A DNA stretch of 64,000 nucleotides from Gammaproteobacteria bacterium (GTDB lineage Bacteria; Pseudomonadota; Gammaproteobacteria; JACQPQ01): NCBI GenBank assembly GCA_016207405.1, contig JACQPQ010000021.1, positions 4,936-68,935 of the forward strand, in the 5' to 3' direction. Shown here piece by piece: positions 746-48,253 of this stretch (position 1 is the first letter of the stretch; every line of letters begins with the position of its first letter). A model generated the notes under the pieces. The model did not search any database. It was not told the DNA's origin and saw only the letters and a list, made by a program, of their open reading frames with translations. A program made the translations under genes and the position numbers.

Positions 746-782
746 ATAAATTGGTGGACCGCTCGCTTTGTCCACCCTACAA
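746..782. repeat. REP-like palindromic element, reverse-complement orientation of the TAGGGTGGACAAAGCGAGCGGTCCACCAATT family
   Basis: The sequence aattggtggaccgctcgctttgtccaccctacaa is the exact reverse complement of the 42702 copy. It lies in the short spacer between two minus-strand genes. Confidence 0.7.
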
Positions 783-3541: not shown

Positions 3542-4132
<591 letters not shown>

Positions 4133-12656: not shown

Positions 12657-13385
12657 TTATAGGGCCTCTCGGAGATAAACAGGCAGTGCATGTTCTGGCT
12701 GAAGCGTTTCACCTTTTTCGAACTTCTGGATCGCCAAAGGTATTAAAGCTCTGGCCATAGGATAACAGTTGGGAAACGAGTGGTGCAAATAGGGGGCAAA
12801 TCGTGTTTCTAAAACACTTGAATAAGCTTTCCAACCACTTCCTACCCCAACCCATTCCGTTGCTTTAGATAAGAGATTTTCTGGGATAGAAATTTCAGAA
12901 GGTTTCTGTAGGGTATCCGGGATAATAGTTTTTAAAAGGGTAAGGGATAAGGGGTAAGGGGTAAGGGATAAGGGGTAATGATTGTTTTCTTCAATTTGGT
13001 AAGCGCCCCAATAAACAGCTCCCATGCGGGCATCTTGTACTCCTAGTACCGCTCCCTTCGAAAAAGTAAGATGCGCTTCTTCGGCAAGACAAGCCAAGCT
13101 TGAGACAGCCACAATAGGTAAGTCATGGGCAAAGGCAAGGCTTTGCGCGATGGAGGCCCCCAGGCGAACCCCTGTAAAAGTACCTGGCCCCTGACCAAAA
13201 ACAATCAGATCTAAATTTGAAAAAAAAATGTTGCTTTTGGAAAGCAAATTGTGGATCATACCGAGCACGTGAAGACTTGCTTTTTGAGTGCCCTCTTCTT
13301 GTTGCTCGAGTAAATGATTGTGTACAAGAAGCGCAACGGAGCAACGTTCTGTTGAGGTTTCTAGGGCGAGTATGGTGTAAGACAT
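12657..13385 (-). CDS. tsaB: tRNA threonylcarbamoyladenosine biosynthesis protein TsaB (YeaZ). It carries an in-frame heptamer-repeat insertion.
   Basis: It has the N-terminal MSYTILALETSTERCSVALL motif and a YeaZ fold. Residues YPLSLTPYPLSLT are encoded by (TTACCCC/TTATCCC)n at 12937..12979. Confidence 0.85.
   Translation of the reverse strand: MSYTILALETSTERCSVALLVHNHLLEQQEEGTQKASLHVLGMIHNLLSKSNIFFSNLDLIVFGQGPGTFTGVRLGASIAQSLAFAHDLPIVAVSSLACLAEEAHLTFSKGAVLGVQDARMGAVYWGAYQIEENNHYPLSLTPYPLSLTLLKTIIPDTLQKPSEISIPENLLSKATEWVGVGSGWKAYSSVLETRFAPYLHHSFPNCYPMARALIPLAIQKFEKGETLQPEHALPVYLREAL
12937..12979. repeat. (GGGTAAG/GGATAAG)x6 heptamer tandem array inside tsaB
   Basis: The sequence is aagggtaagggataaggggtaaggggtaagggataaggggtaa. 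It is 42 bp, which is a multiple of 3, and is in-frame. It is G4-capable on the plus strand. Confidence 0.75.
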
Positions 13386-13450: not shown

Positions 13451-14434
13451 ATGTCTCACCAAATGGTTGTAAGCGCATTGAACCAGGGAGAGTTTTTCAT
13501 TTATTCGCATCTACAACAATCGCTTGTAATCCCCATTATTTGGGGCGGGTTGTTGTGTGCCGTAAATATTCCTGCGCTCGCTTCAGACAACAGTCTTCTT
13601 CCCATGACAAACATGGCACGATGTACAAAGTGTCATGATGAAAACACCTCCCCCGTTTTACCTTTATTAAAATCTAAACATGCCGTAGTAGCGGACAAAA
13701 GAACTCCATTTGCAGGGGAAGCATGCCAGACCTGTCACGGGTTAAGTGAAGAACACATGAAAGGTTCTGAAGATGGAGGGCCGCGCCCTTCTCCCAGCGT
13801 TCGATTTGGTTCCAAGTCCAACACCCCTCTTTCAACTCAAAATGAATCCTGTTTAGCCTGCCACCGTTCTGGTTTGCGGATGGAATGGAAAGGCAGTCCA
13901 CATGAAATGAAAGGGGTGGGGTGCATTAGCTGTCATACCCTACACACCGGTTCGGATAAAGTTTTAGATAAAAAAAACCAAGCGGAAGTTTGTTTTACCT
14001 GTCACAAAACACAGAGGGCGGAGAGTCATAAGCTTTCGTCTCATCCCATTCAAGAAGGGAAAGTCGTCTGTTCCTCTTGCCATAATCCCCATGGTGCAGT
14101 AGGGCCAAAACTTTTGAGTACCAATACGGTTAATGAAACTTGTTATACCTGTCACGCGGAAAAACGAGGGCCGTTTTTGTGGGAACATGCTCCTGTGAGC
14201 GAAAACTGCATAACCTGTCATACACCTCATGGCTCTATTCATAAGCCGCTTTTGAAATCCAGGGGGCCGTGGTTGTGCCAGCAATGCCATTTGACATCTA
14301 ATCATCATACGAGTGGTGCCTATAACTGTTCTAGTTGTCACTCAACCCGGCGGCTATCGGGCAAAGATTGTTTAAATTGTCATTCAGAGGTGCATGGATC
14401 GAATCATCCTTCTGGTGCAAGGTTAATGAGGTGA
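13451..14434 (+). CDS. Periplasmic decaheme c-type cytochrome, MtrA/MtoA/PioA family
   Basis: There are 11 CXXCH motifs in 327 aa (CTKCH, CQTCH, CLACH, CISCH, CFTCH, CSSCH, CYTCH, CITCH, CQQCH, CSSCH, CLNCH). The size and heme density are typical of MtrA/MtoA. A large OM beta-barrel gene follows immediately. The signal peptide may start at an upstream non-ATG codon. Confidence 0.8.
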   Translation: MSHQMVVSALNQGEFFIYSHLQQSLVIPIIWGGLLCAVNIPALASDNSLLPMTNMARCTKCHDENTSPVLPLLKSKHAVVADKRTPFAGEACQTCHGLSEEHMKGSEDGGPRPSPSVRFGSKSNTPLSTQNESCLACHRSGLRMEWKGSPHEMKGVGCISCHTLHTGSDKVLDKKNQAEVCFTCHKTQRAESHKLSSHPIQEGKVVCSSCHNPHGAVGPKLLSTNTVNETCYTCHAEKRGPFLWEHAPVSENCITCHTPHGSIHKPLLKSRGPWLCQQCHLTSNHHTSGAYNCSSCHSTRRLSGKDCLNCHSEVHGSNHPSGARLMR

Positions 14435-14479
14435 AAGGGATAAGGTGAAAGGGATAAGGGGGAAGGGATAAGGGGTAAG
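14431..14479. repeat. Heptamer tandem array (GTGAAAG GGATAAG)x2 GGGGAAG GGATAAG GGGTAAG
   Basis: It is a seven-unit direct 7-mer array. The first unit supplies the TGA stop of the decaheme gene. Confidence 0.7.
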
Positions 14480-14485
14480 TTTTTG

Positions 14486-14526
14486 TAGGGTGGACAAAGT
14501 GAGCGCAGCGAACGGTCCACCTAAGC
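14486..14526. repeat. REP-like palindrome TAGGGTGGACAAAGTGAGCGCAGCGAACGGTCCACCtaagc
   Basis: GGTGGAC and GTCCACC arms enclose an inner palindromic core. It lies between the decaheme gene and the porin gene. Confidence 0.7.
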
Positions 14527-14581
14527 TTGCAGGTCGAATTCAAGCGAAGCGTAGAATCCGACAATTAAAACTCAAAAAGCA

Positions 14582-16801
14582 ATGAGAATGCATAAAAAGA
14601 TATTGATAGCCATTTTATATTTGGCCGCATCCCCTCTTTGGGCAGAAGATGATCCTTTTTCTTTTGGCCCGAGTGATGGAGGCCTTTCTCTAGAAGCCCC
14701 CGCTCCACCACCACCCAACCGTCCTAAAAGCGAACTTGAAATAGGCCTCGCATATATCAACCGAGATTCCTTTAAATTTGGAGAGTACACGGGACAAGAA
14801 GAAAAAGGCCCTTATGTTATTGGGAATGTAGACATTCATCGCCGAGGTGCTTTTGATAGCAGAACTTTTGACAGTGATGGTGCACTGTATTGGATTTTGA
14901 GAGGTAGAAACTTGGGTCTTACGTCGCGAGAAATGGAGGTGGAGACTGGGGTACAGGGCGATTATAAGGTAGGGATGAGCTATGACCAATTGCCTAAATT
15001 TCAAACGGATACGGCTAAGACGATATTTCGAGGCGTGGGGGGAGATACACTTACATTACCTCCTGGGTGGGTAAGAGCTGACGAAACATCTGATATGACA
15101 GAGCTTAATAATAGTCTTCACGAACTCAAGGTAAGCCATGAACGTAAGAAGTATGGTATGGAGTTTTCCAAATTCTTTTCCCGTGGTTGGGAGTTTAGTG
15201 CGAAGTATCATCGTGAAACGAAAGAGGGGAAAAAGCTTGTAGGGGCCATTATAGAGAGTTGGGACTTTGATGATAGTTTTCATGAACCCACCGTTATTAT
15301 CCCTGAGCCTATCGATTACGTCACTCAACAAGTGGATGTGAAATTGAGCTTTACAGGGAAAAAGAGCCAATTTGAGGGGGGGTATTCCGTATCCTTGTTT
15401 GATAACCACAAAGATTCTCTTATTTGGGAAAATCCATTTTCTGCAATTGGAGGGACGCCTGAAACAAGAGGCAGAATAGGGCTGCCTCCTGATAATCAGT
15501 TTCATCAATTAAAAGCGATCTGGGGATATAACTTCGCCCCAAACACTCGTTTAACAGCCCATGGAACGTTCGGAAGAATGACTCAGGATGAGCGGTTCCT
15601 TCCCTATACCATCAACCCAGATTTGGCCGGTTCAGGCCTTCCTCGTTCTTCTTTAAATGGTAGGGTGGATACCTTAAGTTTTTATACTAAATTATTTTCA
15701 CGGTATGGAAATGCTCTGAATTGGGTGGCCAGTTATCGCTATGAAGACCGGGACAATCGCACGTCAAGGGCTTCCTATATTGGTTATGGTGATGCAGCCG
15801 ATCAAGGGGGGGTAGCAAACGCTAGAACTAATCTTCCTTTTAGTTTCAAGCAGAATCAATTCAAGCTTGATGCAACCTATGAATGGTTTTACCGGACGTA
15901 CTTACAGGGCGGCTATGAATACACTCAAATGGAACGCACGCTTTCAGAAGTGAAGAAAAACCAAGAACATTTATATCGGTTAGAGATCAGACGTAATGCG
16001 TTTGACTCATTAACAGGAGGCATTCGTTTTCTTCAGGCTTATCGGCGGGGATCTTCTTATCGAACCACTGCTCTTCAAACGGCTACGGGAGGGGAACATT
16101 CAATGATTCATCCTCTTCAAAGAAAGTTTTATTTAGCCAGCAAAAATAGAACCCAAGGCGGGGGTTTTATGGAGCTTGATCCAATCGAAGCGGTGACGCT
16201 TCAGTTATCTATTGACTTGTATGAAGATGACTATTTAAAGTCAAAAATGGGATTGCGGAAAAGTATGGGACAAGTTTACGCAATAGATGCGACGATGGTT
16301 CCTAAAAAAGATATTACCACGTATGCTTTTTACACCTATGAACATTCGTATTCCGATCAGAAAGAGCGAGCCTTTGAGACTGTTGCTGAGAGCAATGATC
16401 CACGAAGAGACTGGAATAAAAAAACACGAGAAGGGATAGATACGCTGGGGGCTGGTTTTAAATGGGGTCCTTTTTTGGATCGGTGGGATACGGGGGCGGA
16501 TTATACTTACGCACGCTCGCGTGGAAAGGGCCCTGTGAAAACAGGCTCTGCTTTGGATGCTCCCGATCCACCCATTCGTATGTTAACCACGGAGCTTCAC
16601 CGGTTAGATGTCTTTTTAAAATATAAAATCAAAGAGTCGCTTTCGGCTAAGATGAATGTTCTTTATGAGAAATTCAGTTCGCGGGATTATGCCGTCGATA
16701 AAATACAATTAAACGAAATAGATACGATTTTGATAACGGGTGAAAAGAGCCCAGATTACTCAGTTTCTGTAATTGGACTGTCGTTGTTATATGATTTTTA
16801 G
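14582..16801 (+). CDS. Outer-membrane beta-barrel of a porin-cytochrome complex (MtrB/MtoB/PioB-like)
   Basis: It is 739 aa with a signal peptide (MRMHKKILIAILYLAASPLWA), abundant alternating aromatic beta-strand patterns (YxYxxR, FxF), and a C-terminal LLYDF, which is the OMP Phe terminus. It sits immediately 3' of the decaheme gene. Confidence 0.75.
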   Translation: MRMHKKILIAILYLAASPLWAEDDPFSFGPSDGGLSLEAPAPPPPNRPKSELEIGLAYINRDSFKFGEYTGQEEKGPYVIGNVDIHRRGAFDSRTFDSDGALYWILRGRNLGLTSREMEVETGVQGDYKVGMSYDQLPKFQTDTAKTIFRGVGGDTLTLPPGWVRADETSDMTELNNSLHELKVSHERKKYGMEFSKFFSRGWEFSAKYHRETKEGKKLVGAIIESWDFDDSFHEPTVIIPEPIDYVTQQVDVKLSFTGKKSQFEGGYSVSLFDNHKDSLIWENPFSAIGGTPETRGRIGLPPDNQFHQLKAIWGYNFAPNTRLTAHGTFGRMTQDERFLPYTINPDLAGSGLPRSSLNGRVDTLSFYTKLFSRYGNALNWVASYRYEDRDNRTSRASYIGYGDAADQGGVANARTNLPFSFKQNQFKLDATYEWFYRTYLQGGYEYTQMERTLSEVKKNQEHLYRLEIRRNAFDSLTGGIRFLQAYRRGSSYRTTALQTATGGEHSMIHPLQRKFYLASKNRTQGGGFMELDPIEAVTLQLSIDLYEDDYLKSKMGLRKSMGQVYAIDATMVPKKDITTYAFYTYEHSYSDQKERAFETVAESNDPRRDWNKKTREGIDTLGAGFKWGPFLDRWDTGADYTYARSRGKGPVKTGSALDAPDPPIRMLTTELHRLDVFLKYKIKESLSAKMNVLYEKFSSRDYAVDKIQLNEIDTILITGEKSPDYSVSVIGLSLLYDF

Positions 16802-17401
16802 ATGAGGGGAACAATCATGATTAAACGTCTATGGCAAATTCTATGGGCTCCCAGTAGCCGCTATTCGATAGCTGCCTTACTCATAGTGGGTGCTATCGGG
16901 GGGGTGGTATTCTGGGGTGGGTTTAACACGTTTATGGAATACACGAACAGTTTAAGTTTTTGTACGGGCTGTCATGAAATGAGTAGTACTGTATATCCAG
17001 AGTACCAAAAAACTATTCATTACCAGAACAGAACAGGCGTTCGGGCCGTGTGTGCCGACTGCCACGTTCCACATGAGTGGGGACCCAAATTGCTCCGTAA
17101 AATTCAGGCATCCAATGAGCTTTATCATAAAATCGTGGGAACGATAAACACTCCTGAAAAGTTTGAGGCTAGACGTCTTGAGATGGCAGAGCGGGTGTGG
17201 ACCAGCATGAAGGCGACCGATTCCAGGGAGTGTCGAAACTGCCATGACTTTACGGCGATGGAATTAGAAAGGCAAAAGCCGCTTGCACGTACGCAGCATG
17301 AAAATGCAATGCGAGAAAAACAAACGTGTATTGACTGCCATAAGGGTATTGCGCATAAACTGGTTCAGCCTGAATTAAAATCAGAAGATTTTATGATGTA
17401 G
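16802..17401 (+). CDS. NapC/NirT/CymA-family membrane tetraheme cytochrome c (quinol dehydrogenase)
   Basis: It has an N-terminal TM helix (IKRLWQILWAPSSRYSIAALLIVGAIGGVVFWGGF) and four CXXCH motifs (CTGCHEM, CADCHVPH, CRNCHDF, CIDCHKGIAH). It aligns with the NapC N-terminus. Its TAG stop is the first three bases of a REP element. Confidence 0.85.
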   Translation: MRGTIMIKRLWQILWAPSSRYSIAALLIVGAIGGVVFWGGFNTFMEYTNSLSFCTGCHEMSSTVYPEYQKTIHYQNRTGVRAVCADCHVPHEWGPKLLRKIQASNELYHKIVGTINTPEKFEARRLEMAERVWTSMKATDSRECRNCHDFTAMELERQKPLARTQHENAMREKQTCIDCHKGIAHKLVQPELKSEDFMM

Positions 17402-17441
17402 GGTGGACTTGCGCTCGCGTAAGCGAGCAGTCCACCAATTC
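17400..17441. repeat. REP-like palindrome TAGGGTGGACTTGCGCTCGCGTAAGCGAGCAGTCCACCAATT
   Basis: GGTGGAC and GTCCACC outer arms enclose the nested palindrome CGCTCGC-GTAA-GCGAGCG. The TAG supplies the cymA-like stop. Confidence 0.7.
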
Positions 17442-17466
17442 TAACTATTAATAGAGGAGAAATTTT

Positions 17467-18438
17467 ATGCAAAAGTCATTTAATAAACAAACTTTCATTT
17501 TAAGTGGGCTTTTGTTTTTATTACAAATTTTTATTTCTGCGGGTGCACATGCCGTCAACTGGGATACGATAAAAGGAAAGGACATTGCTTTGCTTTATCC
17601 AGGGCAGGCTTCGTGGGAGGCGGTGCTATCGACCCCCTCAATGGGCGCAGCACTGAAAGCAGGTAAAACCTGCCGAACGTGCCATGAAGGGGACCAAAAA
17701 AATATGGGAGATAAGGGCGTATCTGGAAAAGGGCAGCTCGGAGGGAAATCATTGGAGCCTACTCCTGTGGCAGGAAAACCAGGAAGCTTGCCGCTTTTAG
17801 TAAAGGCTGCTTACGATGCAGAAAAACTTTATATCAAATTTGAGTGGACAGAGCCTGCCGGAGAGCCTGCCAGCAAGATGGATCCTGATTTTGTCAGCAA
17901 AGTTGCTTTAATGTTGGATGATGGTCATGTGGTAGAAGCTGCTCGAAGTGGCTGTTGGGGCACTTGTCATGATGATGTGAAAACAATGCCGAGTGGTACA
18001 GGTAAAGAAATCACAAAATATTTAGCAGCTTCTCGCACCAAATTGGATAGAACAGGAGGCGGAGCAAACTATAAATCTCAAGCAGATCTAGACAAACTTT
18101 TAAAGGATGGAGTTTTCATGGAATTTTGGCAGGCCAAACTCAAAAAAGACAAGCCAGCTGTTCCAGTATCCGGATATATTTTGGATAAACGTCATGAACA
18201 CACTTCTTCTCCTGTGCAAGCCGAGTCTGTTTTTAAAGACGGCAAATGGAGTGTTGTATTGTCTCGCAAGTTAAAGTTAGGAACTGCAGGCATGAAGGAT
18301 GTTGAGGAGAAAAAGACCTATGCTATTGGATTTGCAGTTCATAGCCAATATGCAAAGGAACGTTTCCACCATGTTTCTTTTGGGTACACCCTAACACTAG
18401 GAACAGGCACGGCAGATATTGTTGCTATTAAGAGCTAA
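17467..18438 (+). CDS. Secreted c-type cytochrome with a DOMON/ethylbenzene-dehydrogenase-like heme-binding domain
   Basis: It has a signal peptide, one canonical CRTCHEG and one CWGTCH (CX3CH) motif, and a beta-rich C-terminus (KLYIKFEWTEP..., SVVLSRKLKLG, AIGFAVHSQYAKERFHHVS) reminiscent of EB_dh/DOMON heme domains. It is the last gene of the cytochrome cluster. Confidence 0.45.
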   Translation: MQKSFNKQTFILSGLLFLLQIFISAGAHAVNWDTIKGKDIALLYPGQASWEAVLSTPSMGAALKAGKTCRTCHEGDQKNMGDKGVSGKGQLGGKSLEPTPVAGKPGSLPLLVKAAYDAEKLYIKFEWTEPAGEPASKMDPDFVSKVALMLDDGHVVEAARSGCWGTCHDDVKTMPSGTGKEITKYLAASRTKLDRTGGGANYKSQADLDKLLKDGVFMEFWQAKLKKDKPAVPVSGYILDKRHEHTSSPVQAESVFKDGKWSVVLSRKLKLGTAGMKDVEEKKTYAIGFAVHSQYAKERFHHVSFGYTLTLGTGTADIVAIKS

Positions 18439-18451
18439 GTTTTAATTTTGG

Positions 18452-18488
18452 CCCTCTCTCCCGAAAAGCGGGAGAGAGGGTTTGGGTG
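18452..18488. terminator. Bidirectional intrinsic terminator hairpin (CCCTCTCTCCCG-aaaa-CGGGAGAGAGGG followed by tttgggtg)
   Basis: It is a perfect 12-bp GC-rich stem between the convergent cytochrome cluster and the 18499 gene. Confidence 0.65.
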
Positions 18489-18498
18489 AGTAATTATT

Positions 18499-19002
18499 TC
18501 AGCCAGGACTATTTACCACGTGGTCGATGACAAGTTGAAGATCTCGACTCCCCACCTTAGCCGTTACAGGCTGACTTTCCAAGTCCCCCTTCTGAAGATG
18601 CGCATCTCCAGATTTTGAAATACGCGCAATAATAGTGGCTTTCGGAAACTGAGAAAGGGTTAGATCAGGCGTCATAGCCATGCTGTCATTTAAAACAAAT
18701 GACTTGGGTAAGTCTCGAACTTCCGCGCGAATAACCGCCAAAGGCAATTGTGGCCCGTCCACGGCTTTTGCAAAAATAAATACGAGATCGGTAGGGGAAG
18801 TTTGATTGGCTAAATCAGGGGTAAGCGAAACGGTTCCAGAAACGCTGGTCACGTCTCCCCCTGCTTCACCGCCCATAACGACTTCTGGTGAGATTTTTGT
18901 TTTTGCAAAATAAGAAAAATAAACAACACCGATGGCTATGAGAGCCACGCTCATTAAGAGGATGAGCTTTATGTTTGAGATCCCATAATAGGTTTGTCGC
19001 AT
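18499..19002 (-). CDS. Membrane-anchored hypothetical protein (one N-terminal TM helix)
   Basis: The product is 167 aa with an N-terminal TM (IKLILLMSVALIAIGVVYFSYFA) and a periplasmic-looking tail containing VRDLPKSFVLNDSMAM. I have only a weak recollection of similarity to the C-terminal region of cytochrome-c biogenesis CcmI. Confidence 0.4.
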   Translation of the reverse strand: MRQTYYGISNIKLILLMSVALIAIGVVYFSYFAKTKISPEVVMGGEAGGDVTSVSGTVSLTPDLANQTSPTDLVFIFAKAVDGPQLPLAVIRAEVRDLPKSFVLNDSMAMTPDLTLSQFPKATIIARISKSGDAHLQKGDLESQPVTAKVGSRDLQLVIDHVVNSPG

Positions 19003-20691: not shown

Positions 20692-21966
20692 TCAGGAGGT
20701 GGCTAGCTGTGCCTGTAAGAAGCGATGAAGATCAGAAAGCAGAATAAGCTGTGGCTGTTTTGTTTTGCGATGTCGATATTCAACGCTATTTTGTGCAAGC
20801 GTTTTTTCACTCACGACGAGGCGATGGGGAATGCCTATGAGGTCGCTCGTTGCAAGTAGCACGCCTGGACTCTCCGCACGGTCATCCAGAGCGACAGTCC
20901 ATCCGCTTTGAATCAAATCCGCATAAAGCTTTTCGGAAATTCCCTGTACCTCTCGTGAACGATGAAACCCAATCGGCACGATGATAACCTGAAAGGGCGC
21001 AAGAGCGTCCCCCCATATAATGCCAGCGGGATCATGATTTTGCTCGACGGCGGCTGCCACAATACGAGAAATACCAATGCCATAACACCCCATCGTCAGA
21101 ACAGGTGCCTCGCCTTTTTCATTTAAAACGGTTGCCTTTAGAGATTCGCTATACTTTGTGCCGAGTTGAAAGATGTGTCCTACTTCAATGCCTTTAGCAA
21201 TAGAAAGAATGCCTTCCCCATCAGGACTTCTCTCGCCTTCTTTTAAGTGACGAACTTCAGGACAATTGATGTTGCTTGCAAAATCGCTTTCTGTGGAATA
21301 AATAAGTGTGTCTTCTCCAGAGTTTGCTAAAACGTGAAACTCGTGGGATAAATTACCTCCCATAGTTCCCGAATCCGCTTTGACCATCCTAAATTGAAGG
21401 CCCAATCGTGTAAAAATAGTCTGGTAGGCCCCTCGCATAGCTTGGTAGGTGTTGGAAAGACATTCTTTGGTTAGATGAAATGAATAAGCATCTTTCATCA
21501 AGAATTCACGGGCGCGCATTACGCCAAAACGCGGTCGGATTTCATCTCGGAATTTTGTTTGAATTTGATAGAGTATGATGGGAAGCTGTTTATGACTTCG
21601 GAGCTCCCTTCTTGCAAGATCAGTAATGACTTCTTCGTGGGTAGGTCCCAAACAAAATTCGTGTTTGTTTCTGTCCTGAAACCGGAGCAATTCGGGACCA
21701 AATTTATCCCAGCGACCTGACTCTTTCCATAATTCGGCAGGTTGTACCGTAGGCATTAAGATCTCTTGCGCACCGATACGGTTCATTTCTTCCCGCACAC
21801 ACGCCTCAACGTTCCGTAGAACCCGTAAACCCAGTGGTAACCAGGTATAAAGCCCTGAAGCGAGCTTACGGACGAGGCCCGCACGCAACATGAGCTGATG
21901 GCTGATAAGCTCCGCATCCGAAGGTGTTTCTTTCAAATGAGCCAATAAAAAGTGAGAGCATCGCAT
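20692..21966 (-). CDS. proS: Proline--tRNA ligase (short form lacking the INS editing domain)
   Basis: The N-terminus [50 protein letters not shown] matches E. coli ProS. The length is 424 aa. Confidence 0.9.
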
Positions 21967-26444: not shown

Positions 26445-27212
26445 TTAGGTGGATGTATAGTCCACCGTGATAGCCTCCTGCCAAATCGCTTGGAGGGTGG
26501 CCGGTAACTGCTGTCGGCTCAGCAGCCCGGCACCCTGAATTAGACCGGCGATGAGCGGCACATATTCCATCGGAGCTATGTGCTCGCTCATAAACTCACC
26601 GAACCAACCACGCGTGGTAATCGTGGTAAAGGAATTGGTCCGGTGCCCTGCTCCGTGCAGGGTTACCCCGTCTCCGCGGGGACCCACGATCCGCACCTCG
26701 TGGAGCGGGAGCTCCACTATCGGATCTGTCGGTCCGTCCAGGTTGTAAATCCTGGAGCGGAGCCCTACCAGCTGCTGGAGCAGCTGGAATTGGGTGGGGG
26801 TGACCTGCAGGACAAGGTAACTGCAGGCCTTGTCGTACCCCCACTGGGGCGGTACTTCTAAGTCCCCTTGCAGGGACTTTTTGTACCAAATGGGTTTGGT
26901 TATCCGCCGAAGGCGGTCAGCCTCACCCAGAACCTCAGTGAGGGCCCCCTGTAGGGGGTACACCCTCATCCCCCAGGGGCGGTTGTTTATCACGAATCCT
27001 GTCTCGTGATAAACAAGCCAGGCCTTTTCAGAGAAAAAGGCCGAACCGAGGTCCGGCTTTTTCTCCAAGGTTTGGCCAAGAGCCTCCTCGGAGGAGGCCG
27101 GGGCGAACACGACAAACGTGCCCGATGAGGGAAACCTTCCCTCAACCATTCGGGCAATGGTTGGGGTGAGAGCTTTTATGGCCCAGAGGGCCATATTTTC
27201 CAAGAAACTCAT
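26445..27212 (-). CDS. Hypothetical protein encoded by a GC-rich, probably horizontally acquired gene
   Basis: The ORF is about 58-60% GC in a window that is otherwise about 45% GC. It is the only long frame, and short alternative-frame ORFs are typical high-GC artefacts. I placed the start at MSFLEN after gggggagaaaaaaATG. No confident family assignment. Confidence 0.45.
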   Translation of the reverse strand: MSFLENMALWAIKALTPTIARMVEGRFPSSGTFVVFAPASSEEALGQTLEKKPDLGSAFFSEKAWLVYHETGFVINNRPWGMRVYPLQGALTEVLGEADRLRRITKPIWYKKSLQGDLEVPPQWGYDKACSYLVLQVTPTQFQLLQQLVGLRSRIYNLDGPTDPIVELPLHEVRIVGPRGDGVTLHGAGHRTNSFTTITTRGWFGEFMSEHIAPMEYVPLIAGLIQGAGLLSRQQLPATLQAIWQEAITVDYTST

Positions 27213-27719
27213 TTTTTTCTCCCCCTTCCCGTTTAAGGCTTTTGCCACCGTTTGTTAAACGGCCTTTCTGAGGGAGCCCAAAAAAAAGAGGAAAAAACCT
27301 CACGCCTGAGGTTGGAATTTAAAAACAACTGGAGTTAATAACGCCCAGGCGTGAGGAACATCACAAGAAATCTATTTTTGAAAAGGCTTTTTTACGAAGA
27401 AAAACCTTTTTCAAAATAGATTTAAACGCAATGCTCTCCGCCTGGAGAATGCCTTGATATTATAAAAACTGGATGCCAGCTTTTGCTTGCAGGACATGTT
27501 GGGAAGAACCCCACATCCTTTTGGTATGTCTTTTCAGGTTCTAATGGATTTTTATGGGAATAAGTCGTCTTCCACTGACGCTGAGCAGCACTTTAAAACA
27601 AAAAATCAAGTTTTGTCCATGTAAAAAGTGTAAAGAAATGTAAGCATTTGTAACTGCAGTAAGCCTGAGGCCAGCGCAAAATGTGGAAATAGAAACTTTT
27701 TTGCGTGGGGCTACTCTAC

Positions 27720-42688: not shown

Positions 42689-42701
42689 ACGCAGATCTGA
42701 G

Positions 42702-42732
42702 TAGGGTGGACAAAGCGAGCGGTCCACCAATT
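42702..42732. repeat. REP-like palindrome TAGGGTGGACAAAGCGAGCGGTCCACCAATT (minimal copy)
   Basis: It lies 13 bp after the clpX stop. This is the canonical form of the family. Confidence 0.7.
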
Positions 42733-44825: not shown

Positions 44826-44855
44826 GGGTTAGTGGTTAGTGATTAGTGGTTGGTG
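44826..44855. repeat. (GGTTAGT/GATTAGT)x4 heptamer array
   Basis: The sequence is gggttagtggttagtgattagtggttggtgg. On the minus strand this is (CCACTAA)n. It encodes the RluC C-terminus (TPPTTNH) and stop and ends 4 bp before the next gene's ATG. Confidence 0.65.
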
Positions 44856-45813
44856 GAGTCGGTAGGAGAGGCGCAAGCAGACGAACCAGGCATTTTTTTA
44901 ACTCCTCAGGCAATGGGGCCGTAATATTCATAACTTTCTTCTTATCTGGCAGCTTAAAAGCGATTTGATGCGCATGCAAAAACAATCGTGCTAAGCCATA
45001 TTGGCGCATGTGTTGATTAAACTTTTTGTCCCCATATTTTTCATCTCCGGCTATTGCGTGACCTATCGCTTGTGCATGGACGCGGATCTGATGCGTGCGT
45101 CCTGTATGGGGCCGCACTTCTACTAAGGTCGTTTCCTTGTAGACATTGATGGGGGTAAAAGTTGTATGAGCCATTTTACCTTCTTTTTTCACACAAACCA
45201 TTCGTTCACCCGAAACCAGTTGGCTTTTAAATAAGGGGAGTTCTACATTTTTGTGTTTGAAAGAACAGTGTCCTTTCAGCAAGGCGAGATAGATTTTTTG
45301 TACAGTCCCATGTACAAACTGTTCATGAAGATATTTTAAAACGCTTCTTTTGCAAGCAAATAGCAAACACCCAGAGGAGTCTTTGTCCAACCGATGGACT
45401 AATTCCAATGAGGTGTTTTCTGAGATCATTTTCCGAATAATATCGATAATACTATAAGCAAGCCCACTGCCTCCTTGGACGGCGAAACCAGACGGTTTAT
45501 TGATGACGAGTATATTTTCATCTTTATGGAGTATGGAGGCTTGAAATAATTGAAGAACGCGAGGCGGAATTTCAGGAATCGTAGAAGGTTCAGGAAGACT
45601 AAGGGGTGGAAGGCGGACTTCATCGCCTTCCGCTAAATGGTAGCTGGGCTTCACCCGTTTTTTGTTTACTCGCACCTGCCCCGTTCGTATTAAACGATAT
45701 AGGGCACTTTTGGGTAGCCCTTTTAACCGACTCTTTAAAAAATTATCCAAGCGTTGGTTGTAAAACGAAGGAGCAACGGAAAGGATAGAAACAGGGGTTT
45801 TGGTAGGGTACAT
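44836..45813 (-). CDS. rluC: 23S rRNA pseudouridine synthase, RluC-like
   Basis: It has an S4 domain (LDNFLKSRLKGLPKSALYRLIRTGQVRVNKKRVKP) and the catalytic HRLDKDSSG. Confidence 0.7.
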   Translation of the reverse strand: MYPTKTPVSILSVAPSFYNQRLDNFLKSRLKGLPKSALYRLIRTGQVRVNKKRVKPSYHLAEGDEVRLPPLSLPEPSTIPEIPPRVLQLFQASILHKDENILVINKPSGFAVQGGSGLAYSIIDIIRKMISENTSLELVHRLDKDSSGCLLFACKRSVLKYLHEQFVHGTVQKIYLALLKGHCSFKHKNVELPLFKSQLVSGERMVCVKKEGKMAHTTFTPINVYKETTLVEVRPHTGRTHQIRVHAQAIGHAIAGDEKYGDKKFNQHMRQYGLARLFLHAHQIAFKLPDKKKVMNITAPLPEELKKCLVRLLAPLLPTPPTTNH

Positions 45814-47577: not shown

Positions 47578-47598
47578 TCACTTCTCCCTTACCCCTCA

Positions 47599-47634
47599 CC
47601 CCTCTCCCGCTGGTGCGGGAGAGGGGTGTTTTTT
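47599..47634. terminator. GC-rich hairpin / putative bidirectional terminator (CCCCTCTCCCGC-tggt-GCGGGAGAGGGG followed by tgtttttt)
   Basis: It is a perfect 12-bp stem immediately 3' of coq7. A T-run lies on the plus side and an A-run on the minus side. The stem sequence is related to the 18452 hairpin. Confidence 0.55.
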
Positions 47635-48220: not shown

Positions 48221-48253
48221 TCCCCAGCCCTTCCCCCTTATTCCTTACCCCTT
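48221..48253. repeat. Degenerate heptamer array (the reverse complement reads AAGGGGT AAGGAAT AAGGGGG AAGGGCT)
   Basis: It lies in the spacer between rpsI and coq7. Confidence 0.55.

Follow-up and report, generated by a model that had tools for sequence, protein, structure and literature searches.

A probable MtoAB/CymA-type electron conduit with a conserved EB_dh-fold fourth component in a poorly sampled gammaproteobacterial lineage

Can a short run of cytochrome and porin genes, lodged among the housekeeping genes of a gammaproteobacterium, move electrons across the whole cell envelope, and if so, in which direction? Porin-cytochrome conduits serve the oxidation or reduction of iron, manganese and electrodes outside the cell, and the lineages that carry them shape both iron-cycling models and the choice of chassis for bioelectrochemistry. 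We analysed a 64-kb stretch of DNA (contig JACQPQ010000021.1 of assembly GCA_016207405.1, positions 4,936 to 68,935; hereafter the window, with coordinates counted from its first letter) in which four intact open reading frames (ORFs) lie on the + strand at 13451-18438. They encode an MtoA-like multihaem cytochrome (gene 1), an MtoB-like outer-membrane barrel (gene 2), a CymA/ImoA-like quinol dehydrogenase (gene 3) and a secreted c-type cytochrome (gene 4, g4). Each product belongs to its family over its full length, and the four families are linked in related genomes. Judged from sequence, the four genes probably form one operon, whose products would conduct electrons across the envelope in the manner of MtoAB/CymA systems.

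Gene 1 (13451..14434) encodes a putatively periplasmic cytochrome of 327 amino acids (aa) and falls in the MtrA/MtoA/DmsE family. It scored 287.6 bits against TIGR03508 (DmsE-family decahaem cytochrome; cut-off 192.2), aligning with positions 3-258 of the 258-position model, and it matched MtrA of the Shewanella baltica MtrCAB crystal structure (6R2Q_A) with an E value of 4.9e-78 and about 48% identity across 263 aligned positions. All 10 family CXXCH haem-binding motifs and 21 of 21 invariant histidines are retained. The protein has exactly 11 CXXCH motifs, the first at residue 58, and lacks the N-terminal extension of about 200 aa found in PioA. Gene 2 (14582..16801; 739 aa) is a sheath protein of the MtrB/PioB family with a signal peptide (N-terminus MRMHKKILIAILYLAASPLWA), no CXXCH and the C-terminus ...LYDF. 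The PF11854 (MtrB_PioB) profile covered it end to end (positions 1-635 of 635, 478 bits), TIGR03509 scored 449.5 bits against a cut-off of 240, and MtrB of the same crystal structure (6R2Q_B) was matched with an E value of 1.2e-62.

Gene 3 (16802..17401; 199 aa) was matched by PF03264 (NapC/NirT) with 259 bits over model positions 2-173 of 174. Its product has a single N-terminal hydrophobic helix at about residues 22-45 and four CXXCH motifs, at residues 54, 84, 144 and 176, the first of which reads CTGCHEM, the CXXCHxM form of quinol-active members. Scores stayed under the cut-offs of NF007906 (279.7 vs 349) and TorC (265 vs 478 bits, the match being to the N-terminal half of TorC), and there were no nap or tor genes near gene 3. 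By family and context, the predicted product is a CymA/ImoA-like tetrahaem protein of the inner membrane.

The fourth gene (17467..18438; 323 aa) encodes a protein with a Sec-type signal ending AHA/V, one CXXCH motif (C69-H73) and one CX3CH motif (C163-H168, CWGTCH). Its only Pfam match was EB_dh (PF09459; 123 bits, gathering score 33.3). An AlphaFold2 model built with 20 homologues had a pLDDT (predicted local distance difference test) of 77, and Foldseek matched this model to the haem-b gamma subunit of ethylbenzene dehydrogenase (2ivf_C, E 1.2e-10) and to NxrC (7b04_C, E 3.8e-8), with weaker matches to CBM9 and DOMON folds, pointing to an EB_dh/NxrC/DOMON-like beta-sandwich. The combination of one CXXCH and one CX3CH was found in 120 of the 120 best homologues, and C69, C72, H73, C163, C167, H168, M174, Y185, H292 and H301 are invariant in the family. 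Residue 59 is Met in the window's g4 and His in 118 of the 120; if this residue is a distal ligand, Met59 would raise the potential of that haem, a speculative point. The family is small: of 1.84 billion cluster representatives, 402 were matched at E <= 1e-3, and the stricter threshold of E <= 1e-30 left 80.

We scanned the GTDB species genomes, whose representatives do not include the window's own genome, with an alignment of the g4 family and obtained 361 relatives; linkage was counted in the best 80 loci. In 56 of 74 testable loci the gene immediately downstream of g4 was mtoA; mtoB came next after mtoA in 50 of 65, and cymA was directly upstream of g4 in 51 of 75. All-against-all clustering of the ORFs over the 80 loci yielded no fifth conserved family. 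Carriers were mostly Gamma- and Alphaproteobacteria, among them Lysobacteraceae, Rhodospirillaceae, Methyloprofundus and Thiohalomonas, and they included the cultured strains Rehaibacterium terrae DSM 25897 and Marinobacterium aestuariivivens NBRC 111756. We also found six natural fusions (516-924 aa) of an N-terminal NapC/NirT domain to a C-terminal g4-like EB_dh domain; in two of these the best match spans all of g4 from about residue 29-30, just past its signal peptide. Because g4 sits directly upstream of mtoA in most loci and is fused to NapC/NirT in these proteins, it is probably the periplasmic partner of CymA, and the Rosetta-stone fusions suggest that it acts in the periplasm and touches CymA directly.

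Some relatives depart from this pattern. Fifteen of the loci have g4-mtoA-mtoB without an upstream cymA; most bear the label Rhodospirillaceae, some are labelled 'Marinimicrobia' and one comes from an unclassified bacterium. They carry two conserved Pfam-less proteins upstream and DUF1800/DUF1501 genes downstream. One 694-aa relative has two stretches on the EB_dh model, and another of 637 aa has two against g4 and one on the Pfam model. Proteins identical to those of the window are already named by NCBI, as 'DmsE family decaheme c-type cytochrome' for gene 1 and 'cytochrome c-552 precursor' for gene 4. In the searchable Mto/Mtr literature, we found no named characterisation of the g4 family; in a decahaem-porin cluster of Methylobacter, a 'periplasmic monohaem cytochrome' that may or may not belong to the g4 family is encoded upstream of the decahaem gene (PMC13322032).

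We read the four genes as one operon because they share a strand, the mtoB stop codon abuts the cymA start codon (16801/16802), a GAGGAG ribosome-binding site precedes gene 4, and a strong hairpin follows it. The spacer between mtoA and mtoB is 147 bp long. The hairpin after g4 is a perfect, G+C-rich 12-bp stem at 18452..18480 (RNA fold -28.4 kcal/mol, z -5.5), after which comes UUU; it lies between g4 and a convergent gene on the - strand (18499-19002), so that it is likely to be a bidirectional terminator that closes the operon. Compared with the usual cymA-g4-mtoA-mtoB, the gene order here, mtoA-mtoB-cymA-g4, is cyclically permuted, and it occurs in none of the 80 related loci.

The preliminary description of this locus, made from the letters alone, had listed an 11-CXXCH protein, a large barrel ending in Phe, a NapC/CymA-type quinol dehydrogenase and a further secreted cytochrome, and had likened the set to MtoAB/PioAB/MtrAB conduits. 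A sequence check recovered every ORF, CXXCH count and the C-terminal Phe. The barrel is indeed of the MtrB/PioB type, the third product has the family profile, haem motifs and N-terminal helix of a NapC/CymA-type enzyme, and the profile and PDB matches support the comparison with known conduits. The lack of MtrB/PioB similarity in the barrel that, by the preliminary description, would have refuted its reading was thus not observed. Two points called for amendment. The last gene does encode a secreted c-type cytochrome, but not a generic one, since members of its conserved EB_dh-fold family accompany mtoAB and cymA. The cluster was also said to sit between tsaB and pabB in a housekeeping neighbourhood; those flanks are as described (pyrF, recN, nadK and tsaB upstream, pabB, proS, gltX and cysS downstream), but an additional gene separates gene 4 from pabB. 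This is the convergent gene at 18499-19002, which encodes a membrane-anchored product of 167 aa with a CycH/CcmI Ig-like domain (Ig_CycH, PF23892, 116 bits) and overlaps the pabB start by 34 nt. Its adjacency to mto genes was not conserved across the 80 related loci.

The eleventh CXXCH of gene 1 had been counted correctly, in a family that is itself decahaem: 10 motifs were counted in 115 of the 120 best homologues and also in the nearest relative, at 75% identity. The additional motif, C293-S-S-C-H297, lies between family motifs 9 and 10 and aligns with MtrA residues of about 284-306; H285 and H297 are unique to the gene 1 protein. In MtrA, residues 284-306 and haem A10 are the only surface-exposed parts and contact MtrC (PMC7198977). 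Since the extra motif sits in the loop that aligns with this exposed segment, the wire could plausibly carry an additional haem at its outer tip, and C293-H297 together with His285 would probably add one more bis-His haem at the extracellular tip of MtoA. Three MtoA homologues with 11-12 CXXCH also carry all of their extra motifs between family motifs 9 and 10, and such independent variants with extras in the same loop may point to recurrent evolution of extended MtoA wires.

Neither of two trivial origins accounted for the eleventh motif. A frameshift was rejected, as neither alternative reading frame of the loop is open, both containing many stop codons, and a DNA alignment to the 75%-identical relative revealed plain divergence with small indels. 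An assembly artefact was rejected as well, the identical 327-aa protein having been called in two independent Logan run assemblies. Among the homologues with extra motifs, the gene of the 12-motif protein (locus L085, 1570-4822) has mtoB as its sole partner downstream; the pair stands among housekeeping genes, with neither cymA nor g4. The sample from which the window's metagenome-assembled genome was derived (SRR12113385) holds a second population with 75%-identical mtoA and mtoB (locus L083). What follows mtoAB there is not cymA-g4; it is a weakly phosphate-porin-like gene (under the stretch threshold of Pfam) together with genes for a PBP-like protein and a chemoreceptor.

In the mechanism that we propose, electrons would pass along a chain of quinone pool, CymA, g4, MtoA inside MtoB, and cell exterior. 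CymA would give electrons to, or take them from, the quinone pool via its four c haems, and g4 would dock on CymA and ferry electrons over the periplasm, a role like that of PmcA between ImoA and MtoA in Sideroxydans or of STC/FccA in Shewanella. MtoA would be threaded in the MtoB barrel with its haem chain crossing the outer membrane, and its last haem or haems, at the cell surface, would react directly with redox substrates outside the cell, be they soluble or surface-bound. PmcA, a periplasmic monohaem cytochrome of the Sideroxydans mto cluster, interacts with both ImoA and MtoA (PMC13390432); we infer that g4 plays its part, as an analogue by position and presumed role and not as a homologue. 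The order of electron hand-over, the periplasmic location of g4 and its binding to CymA are likewise inferred. We found no MtrC/OmcA-type gene in the 64 kb, where more than one CXXCH occurs only in genes 1 and 3 and the ORFs with a single CXXCH are gene 4 and one 61-codon frame. We therefore assign the conduit to the two-component MtoAB type.

The direction of flow is the least certain part of this account. We lean towards inward flow, the oxidation of Fe(II) or another extracellular donor, because there is no MtrC/OmcA-type partner and because the characterised two-component homologues MtoAB (PMC5566968) and PioAB (PMC6831781) are oxidative and take electrons up. The window also contains ubiA and ubiC, for ubiquinone synthesis, and this tips the balance slightly towards a high-potential or oxidative chain. 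The same conduit might instead run outward, with quinol electrons leaving via CymA, g4 and MtoAB under oxygen limitation to reach soluble Fe(III) chelates, Mn(IV), humics, flavins or electrodes, much like MtrAB without MtrC. We consider this less likely than inward flow. MtrAB does still reduce soluble Fe(III) chelates when MtrC is missing, with haem A10 exposed (PMC7198977), and gene 1 shares about 48% identity with Shewanella MtrA; moreover, among the organisms with all four genes, many live as aerobic heterotrophs or methanotrophs and are not known iron oxidisers, and outward flow has been proposed for the similar decahaem-porin cluster, without MtrC, of an anode-enriched Methylobacter (PMC13322032). 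All characterised mineral-reducing Mtr systems, however, have the MtrC/OmcA partner that the window lacks, and the quinone genes present are for ubiquinone and not menaquinone synthesis, in what is 64 kb of the genome only.

Two further explanations would take the locus away from a working iron or electrode conduit altogether, and we give each very little weight. One is a DmsEF-like system, in which MtoAB and g4 would serve a molybdoenzyme of the type II dimethyl sulfoxide (DMSO) reductase family with g4 as its gamma-like haem subunit. The best NCBIfam model of gene 1 is named after DmsE, and g4 shares its fold with the gamma subunit of ethylbenzene dehydrogenase and with that of nitrite oxidoreductase. 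Yet no genes for a molybdopterin alpha or an FeS beta subunit adjoin the cluster in the window, no molybdoenzyme subunit family is conserved in the 80 related loci, g4 scored only 40 bits on TIGR03477 (cut-off 169.85), its covalent-haem motifs are absent from haem-b gamma subunits, and its fusions are to NapC/NirT domains and not to subunits of molybdoenzymes. The other holds that the cluster is a decaying or silent remnant, rearranged, invaded by repeats and non-functional. Such decay could be read into the permuted order, seen in none of the related loci, into repeats in two of the three intergenic spacers, into the atypical n-region of the gene 1 signal peptide and into Met59 of g4. It fits poorly with four ORFs that are full length against their family models, free of frameshifts and in possession of all haem motifs and invariant histidines, with repeats that occur between the genes only, and with a host-like composition. 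Hairpins of the REP (repetitive extragenic palindromic) kind are common within functional operons of bacteria.

Several observations do weigh against an intact, inward-running MtoAB/CymA-type conduit. MtoA and PioA form no function-specific clades (PMC8805035), so the direction is unreadable from sequence, and the Methylobacter proposal runs the opposite way. A scan of the 65-bp tsaB-mtoA spacer found no sigma-70-like promoter, overall counts of such sites being at shuffle level. The N-terminus of gene 1 has a good hydrophobic core and an ALA/S site with an n-region that lacks Lys and Arg, and the ORF is not extendable upstream, the frame being open only from 13445. The AlphaFold2 model of gene 1 had a mean pLDDT of 55.7, with the C-terminal half below 50, and is too poor for the extra motif to be placed in three dimensions. 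Gene 3 fell under the cut-off of TIGR02161 (NapC/NirT; 292.2 vs 310.6), and the location and contacts proposed for g4 come from linkage and fusions.

Repeats lie between genes of the operon. The preliminary description had reported a heptamer array and a REP element between the decahaem and porin genes, and Tandem Repeats Finder and a comparison of pattern counts with shuffled sequence located both. The array (AAGGGAT / GGGTAAG type, period 7/14) spans 14429..14479 and overlaps the mtoA stop codon; the REP-like hairpin, GTAGGGTGGAC...GTCCACC, lies at 14485..14521 on the + strand (RNA fold -16 kcal/mol, z -1.7). A second hairpin follows cymA at 17398..17436, also on the + strand (-25.7 kcal/mol, z -5.3). 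The pattern GGTGGAC-N(8-30)-GTCCACC occurred five times in the window where 0 were expected (100 shuffles), with the operon copies at 14489-14521 and 17402-17436, and a conserved GTAG precedes all five. The earlier statement that a REP overlaps the cymA stop is literally right, in that the TAG of this GTAG, at 17398-17401, is the stop codon of gene 3.

Outside the operon, the REP-like family (consensus GTAGGGTGGAC-(loop)-GTCCACC) has copies at 749-776 (- strand), 3591-3631 and 42701-42728, and all five copies stand at gene ends. Further heptamer arrays were located at 3544-3571, 3637-3660, 4103-4129, 32627-32679, 44827-44856, 47586-47608 and 48228-48253, nearly all at or across gene ends, as in the interval between guaA and a deaminase gene, or where the ORF at 32657-33829 stops. 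Another array, at 12938-12978 (41 bp, with two perfect 21-nt units of the GGGTAAG/GGGATAA type), lies in frame within tsaB (12657-13385, - strand), where it encodes ...YPLSLTPYPLSLT.... It is an insertion that this essential gene tolerates, because the 212 positions of the TsaB profile align over 235 residues. Two independent short-read assemblies break 81 bp past the mtoA stop, in the repeat-rich spacer.

The third-codon-position GC content (GC3) of the four genes was 0.36-0.47, within the range of the window (0.417 +/- 0.057), and the same held for GC. A recent horizontal island was rejected on this composition and on the host-specific repeats inside the cluster; for the same reasons, we regard the cluster as a long-term resident and not a fresh arrival. 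The best non-self match of the host GuaA was at 70% and the next at about 65%, and the host belongs, by this sequence measure, to a deep and poorly sampled lineage. The closest GuaA relative (70%) is encoded on an 18-kb contig that is non-syntenic with the window.

Other features of the window stand apart from the cytochrome cluster. An ORF of 267 aa at 26445-27248 (- strand) has 57.5% GC (GC3 0.69) in a window of about 45% GC and no Pfam match; with a local GC peak of 0.60 at 26600-26899, it is possibly foreign or an orphan. An AbiEi/AbiEii type IV toxin-antitoxin pair (34765-36340, GC 0.37) lies just upstream of ribBA-ribH, and a 34-bp A+T-rich tandem repeat (28607-28699; 2.7 copies, 96% matches) directly precedes a small HTH_3 regulator gene at 28705-29181. 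ProS (20692-21966, - strand) is a short form of 424 aa that aligns as two stretches on the 559-aa bacterial model, without the central insertion domain; against the short-ProS model NF008979 it scored 534.7, the cut-off being 550.

The locus shows a complete, host-adapted conduit set in a poorly sampled gammaproteobacterial lineage. Its fourth component is conserved, and dozens of genomes, two of them from cultured strains, have it in linkage with cymA and mtoAB. We tentatively suggest, while rating it below an even chance, that it represents a distinct Mto sub-type, defined by CymA with a dedicated EB_dh/DOMON partner bearing two haem motifs and by an MtoA with an eleventh, bis-His haem in the surface loop. 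If so, CymA and g4 would in effect be a split TorC-like arrangement, the four-gene module may be widespread in Gamma- and Alphaproteobacteria, and the eleventh haem would lengthen the wire outward and partly replace the missing MtrC. A real surface-loop haem would mean that a conduit of two components can grow longer with no MtrC-type cap. The EB_dh-fold partner of CymA/MtoAB with its fusions, the surface-loop motif and the permuted gene order are what most deserve the attention of specialists.

How, then, does the locus compare with systems already characterised? Its fourth component shares a beta-sandwich, in the C-terminal ~220 residues, with the gamma subunits EbdC, NxrC and DdhC. Unlike g4, those subunits bind one non-covalent haem b within alpha-beta-gamma molybdoenzymes, whereas g4 has two invariant covalent-haem motifs, stays below the TIGR03477 cut-off and is linked to cymA and mtoAB. 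TorC/DorC pentahaem cytochromes resemble the CymA-g4 pair in joining a NapC/NirT tetrahaem module to an extra haem domain that passes electrons to a periplasmic partner, and CymA-g4 fusions do exist; here, however, the extension is a separate gene of unrelated EB_dh fold, and the partner is a porin-cytochrome in place of a trimethylamine N-oxide (TMAO) or DMSO reductase. With Shewanella MtrCAB (6R2Q) the locus shares clear homologues of MtrA and MtrB, in which the order of haem motifs and all distal histidines are conserved, but Shewanella has MtrC/OmcA, encodes CymA elsewhere and uses STC/FccA as carriers. PioABC of Rhodopseudomonas palustris TIE-1 is, like the present set, a two-component outer-membrane conduit with no surface cytochrome. 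It differs in that its periplasmic partner PioC is an iron-sulfur protein of high potential (HiPIP), that a NapC/NirT gene is not part of the pio operon, and that PioA has a processed N-terminal extension of about 200 aa before its haem domain (PMC6831781).

The mto cluster of Sideroxydans lithotrophicus ES-1 (slit_2494-2498) comprises MtoA, MtoB, ImoA/CymA, MtoD and PmcA (PMC13390432). Both loci have a decahaem-family cytochrome, an MtrB/PioB barrel, a NapC/NirT tetrahaem protein and a periplasmic carrier (a predicted one in the window), with no surface MtrC. The mtoA-mtoB-cymA-carrier order of the window also resembles the layout in ES-1. The carriers themselves are different, MtoD and PmcA being class I monohaem proteins of about 100 aa and g4 a 323-aa EB_dh/DOMON-fold protein with CXXCH and CX3CH motifs; gene 1 has the eleventh CXXCH, and the host is a deep-branching gammaproteobacterium and not a Gallionellaceae iron oxidiser. 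Because gene 1 lacks the PioA extension and the window has no MtrC/OmcA, the closest architecture is that of MtoAB with CymA/ImoA and a periplasmic carrier.

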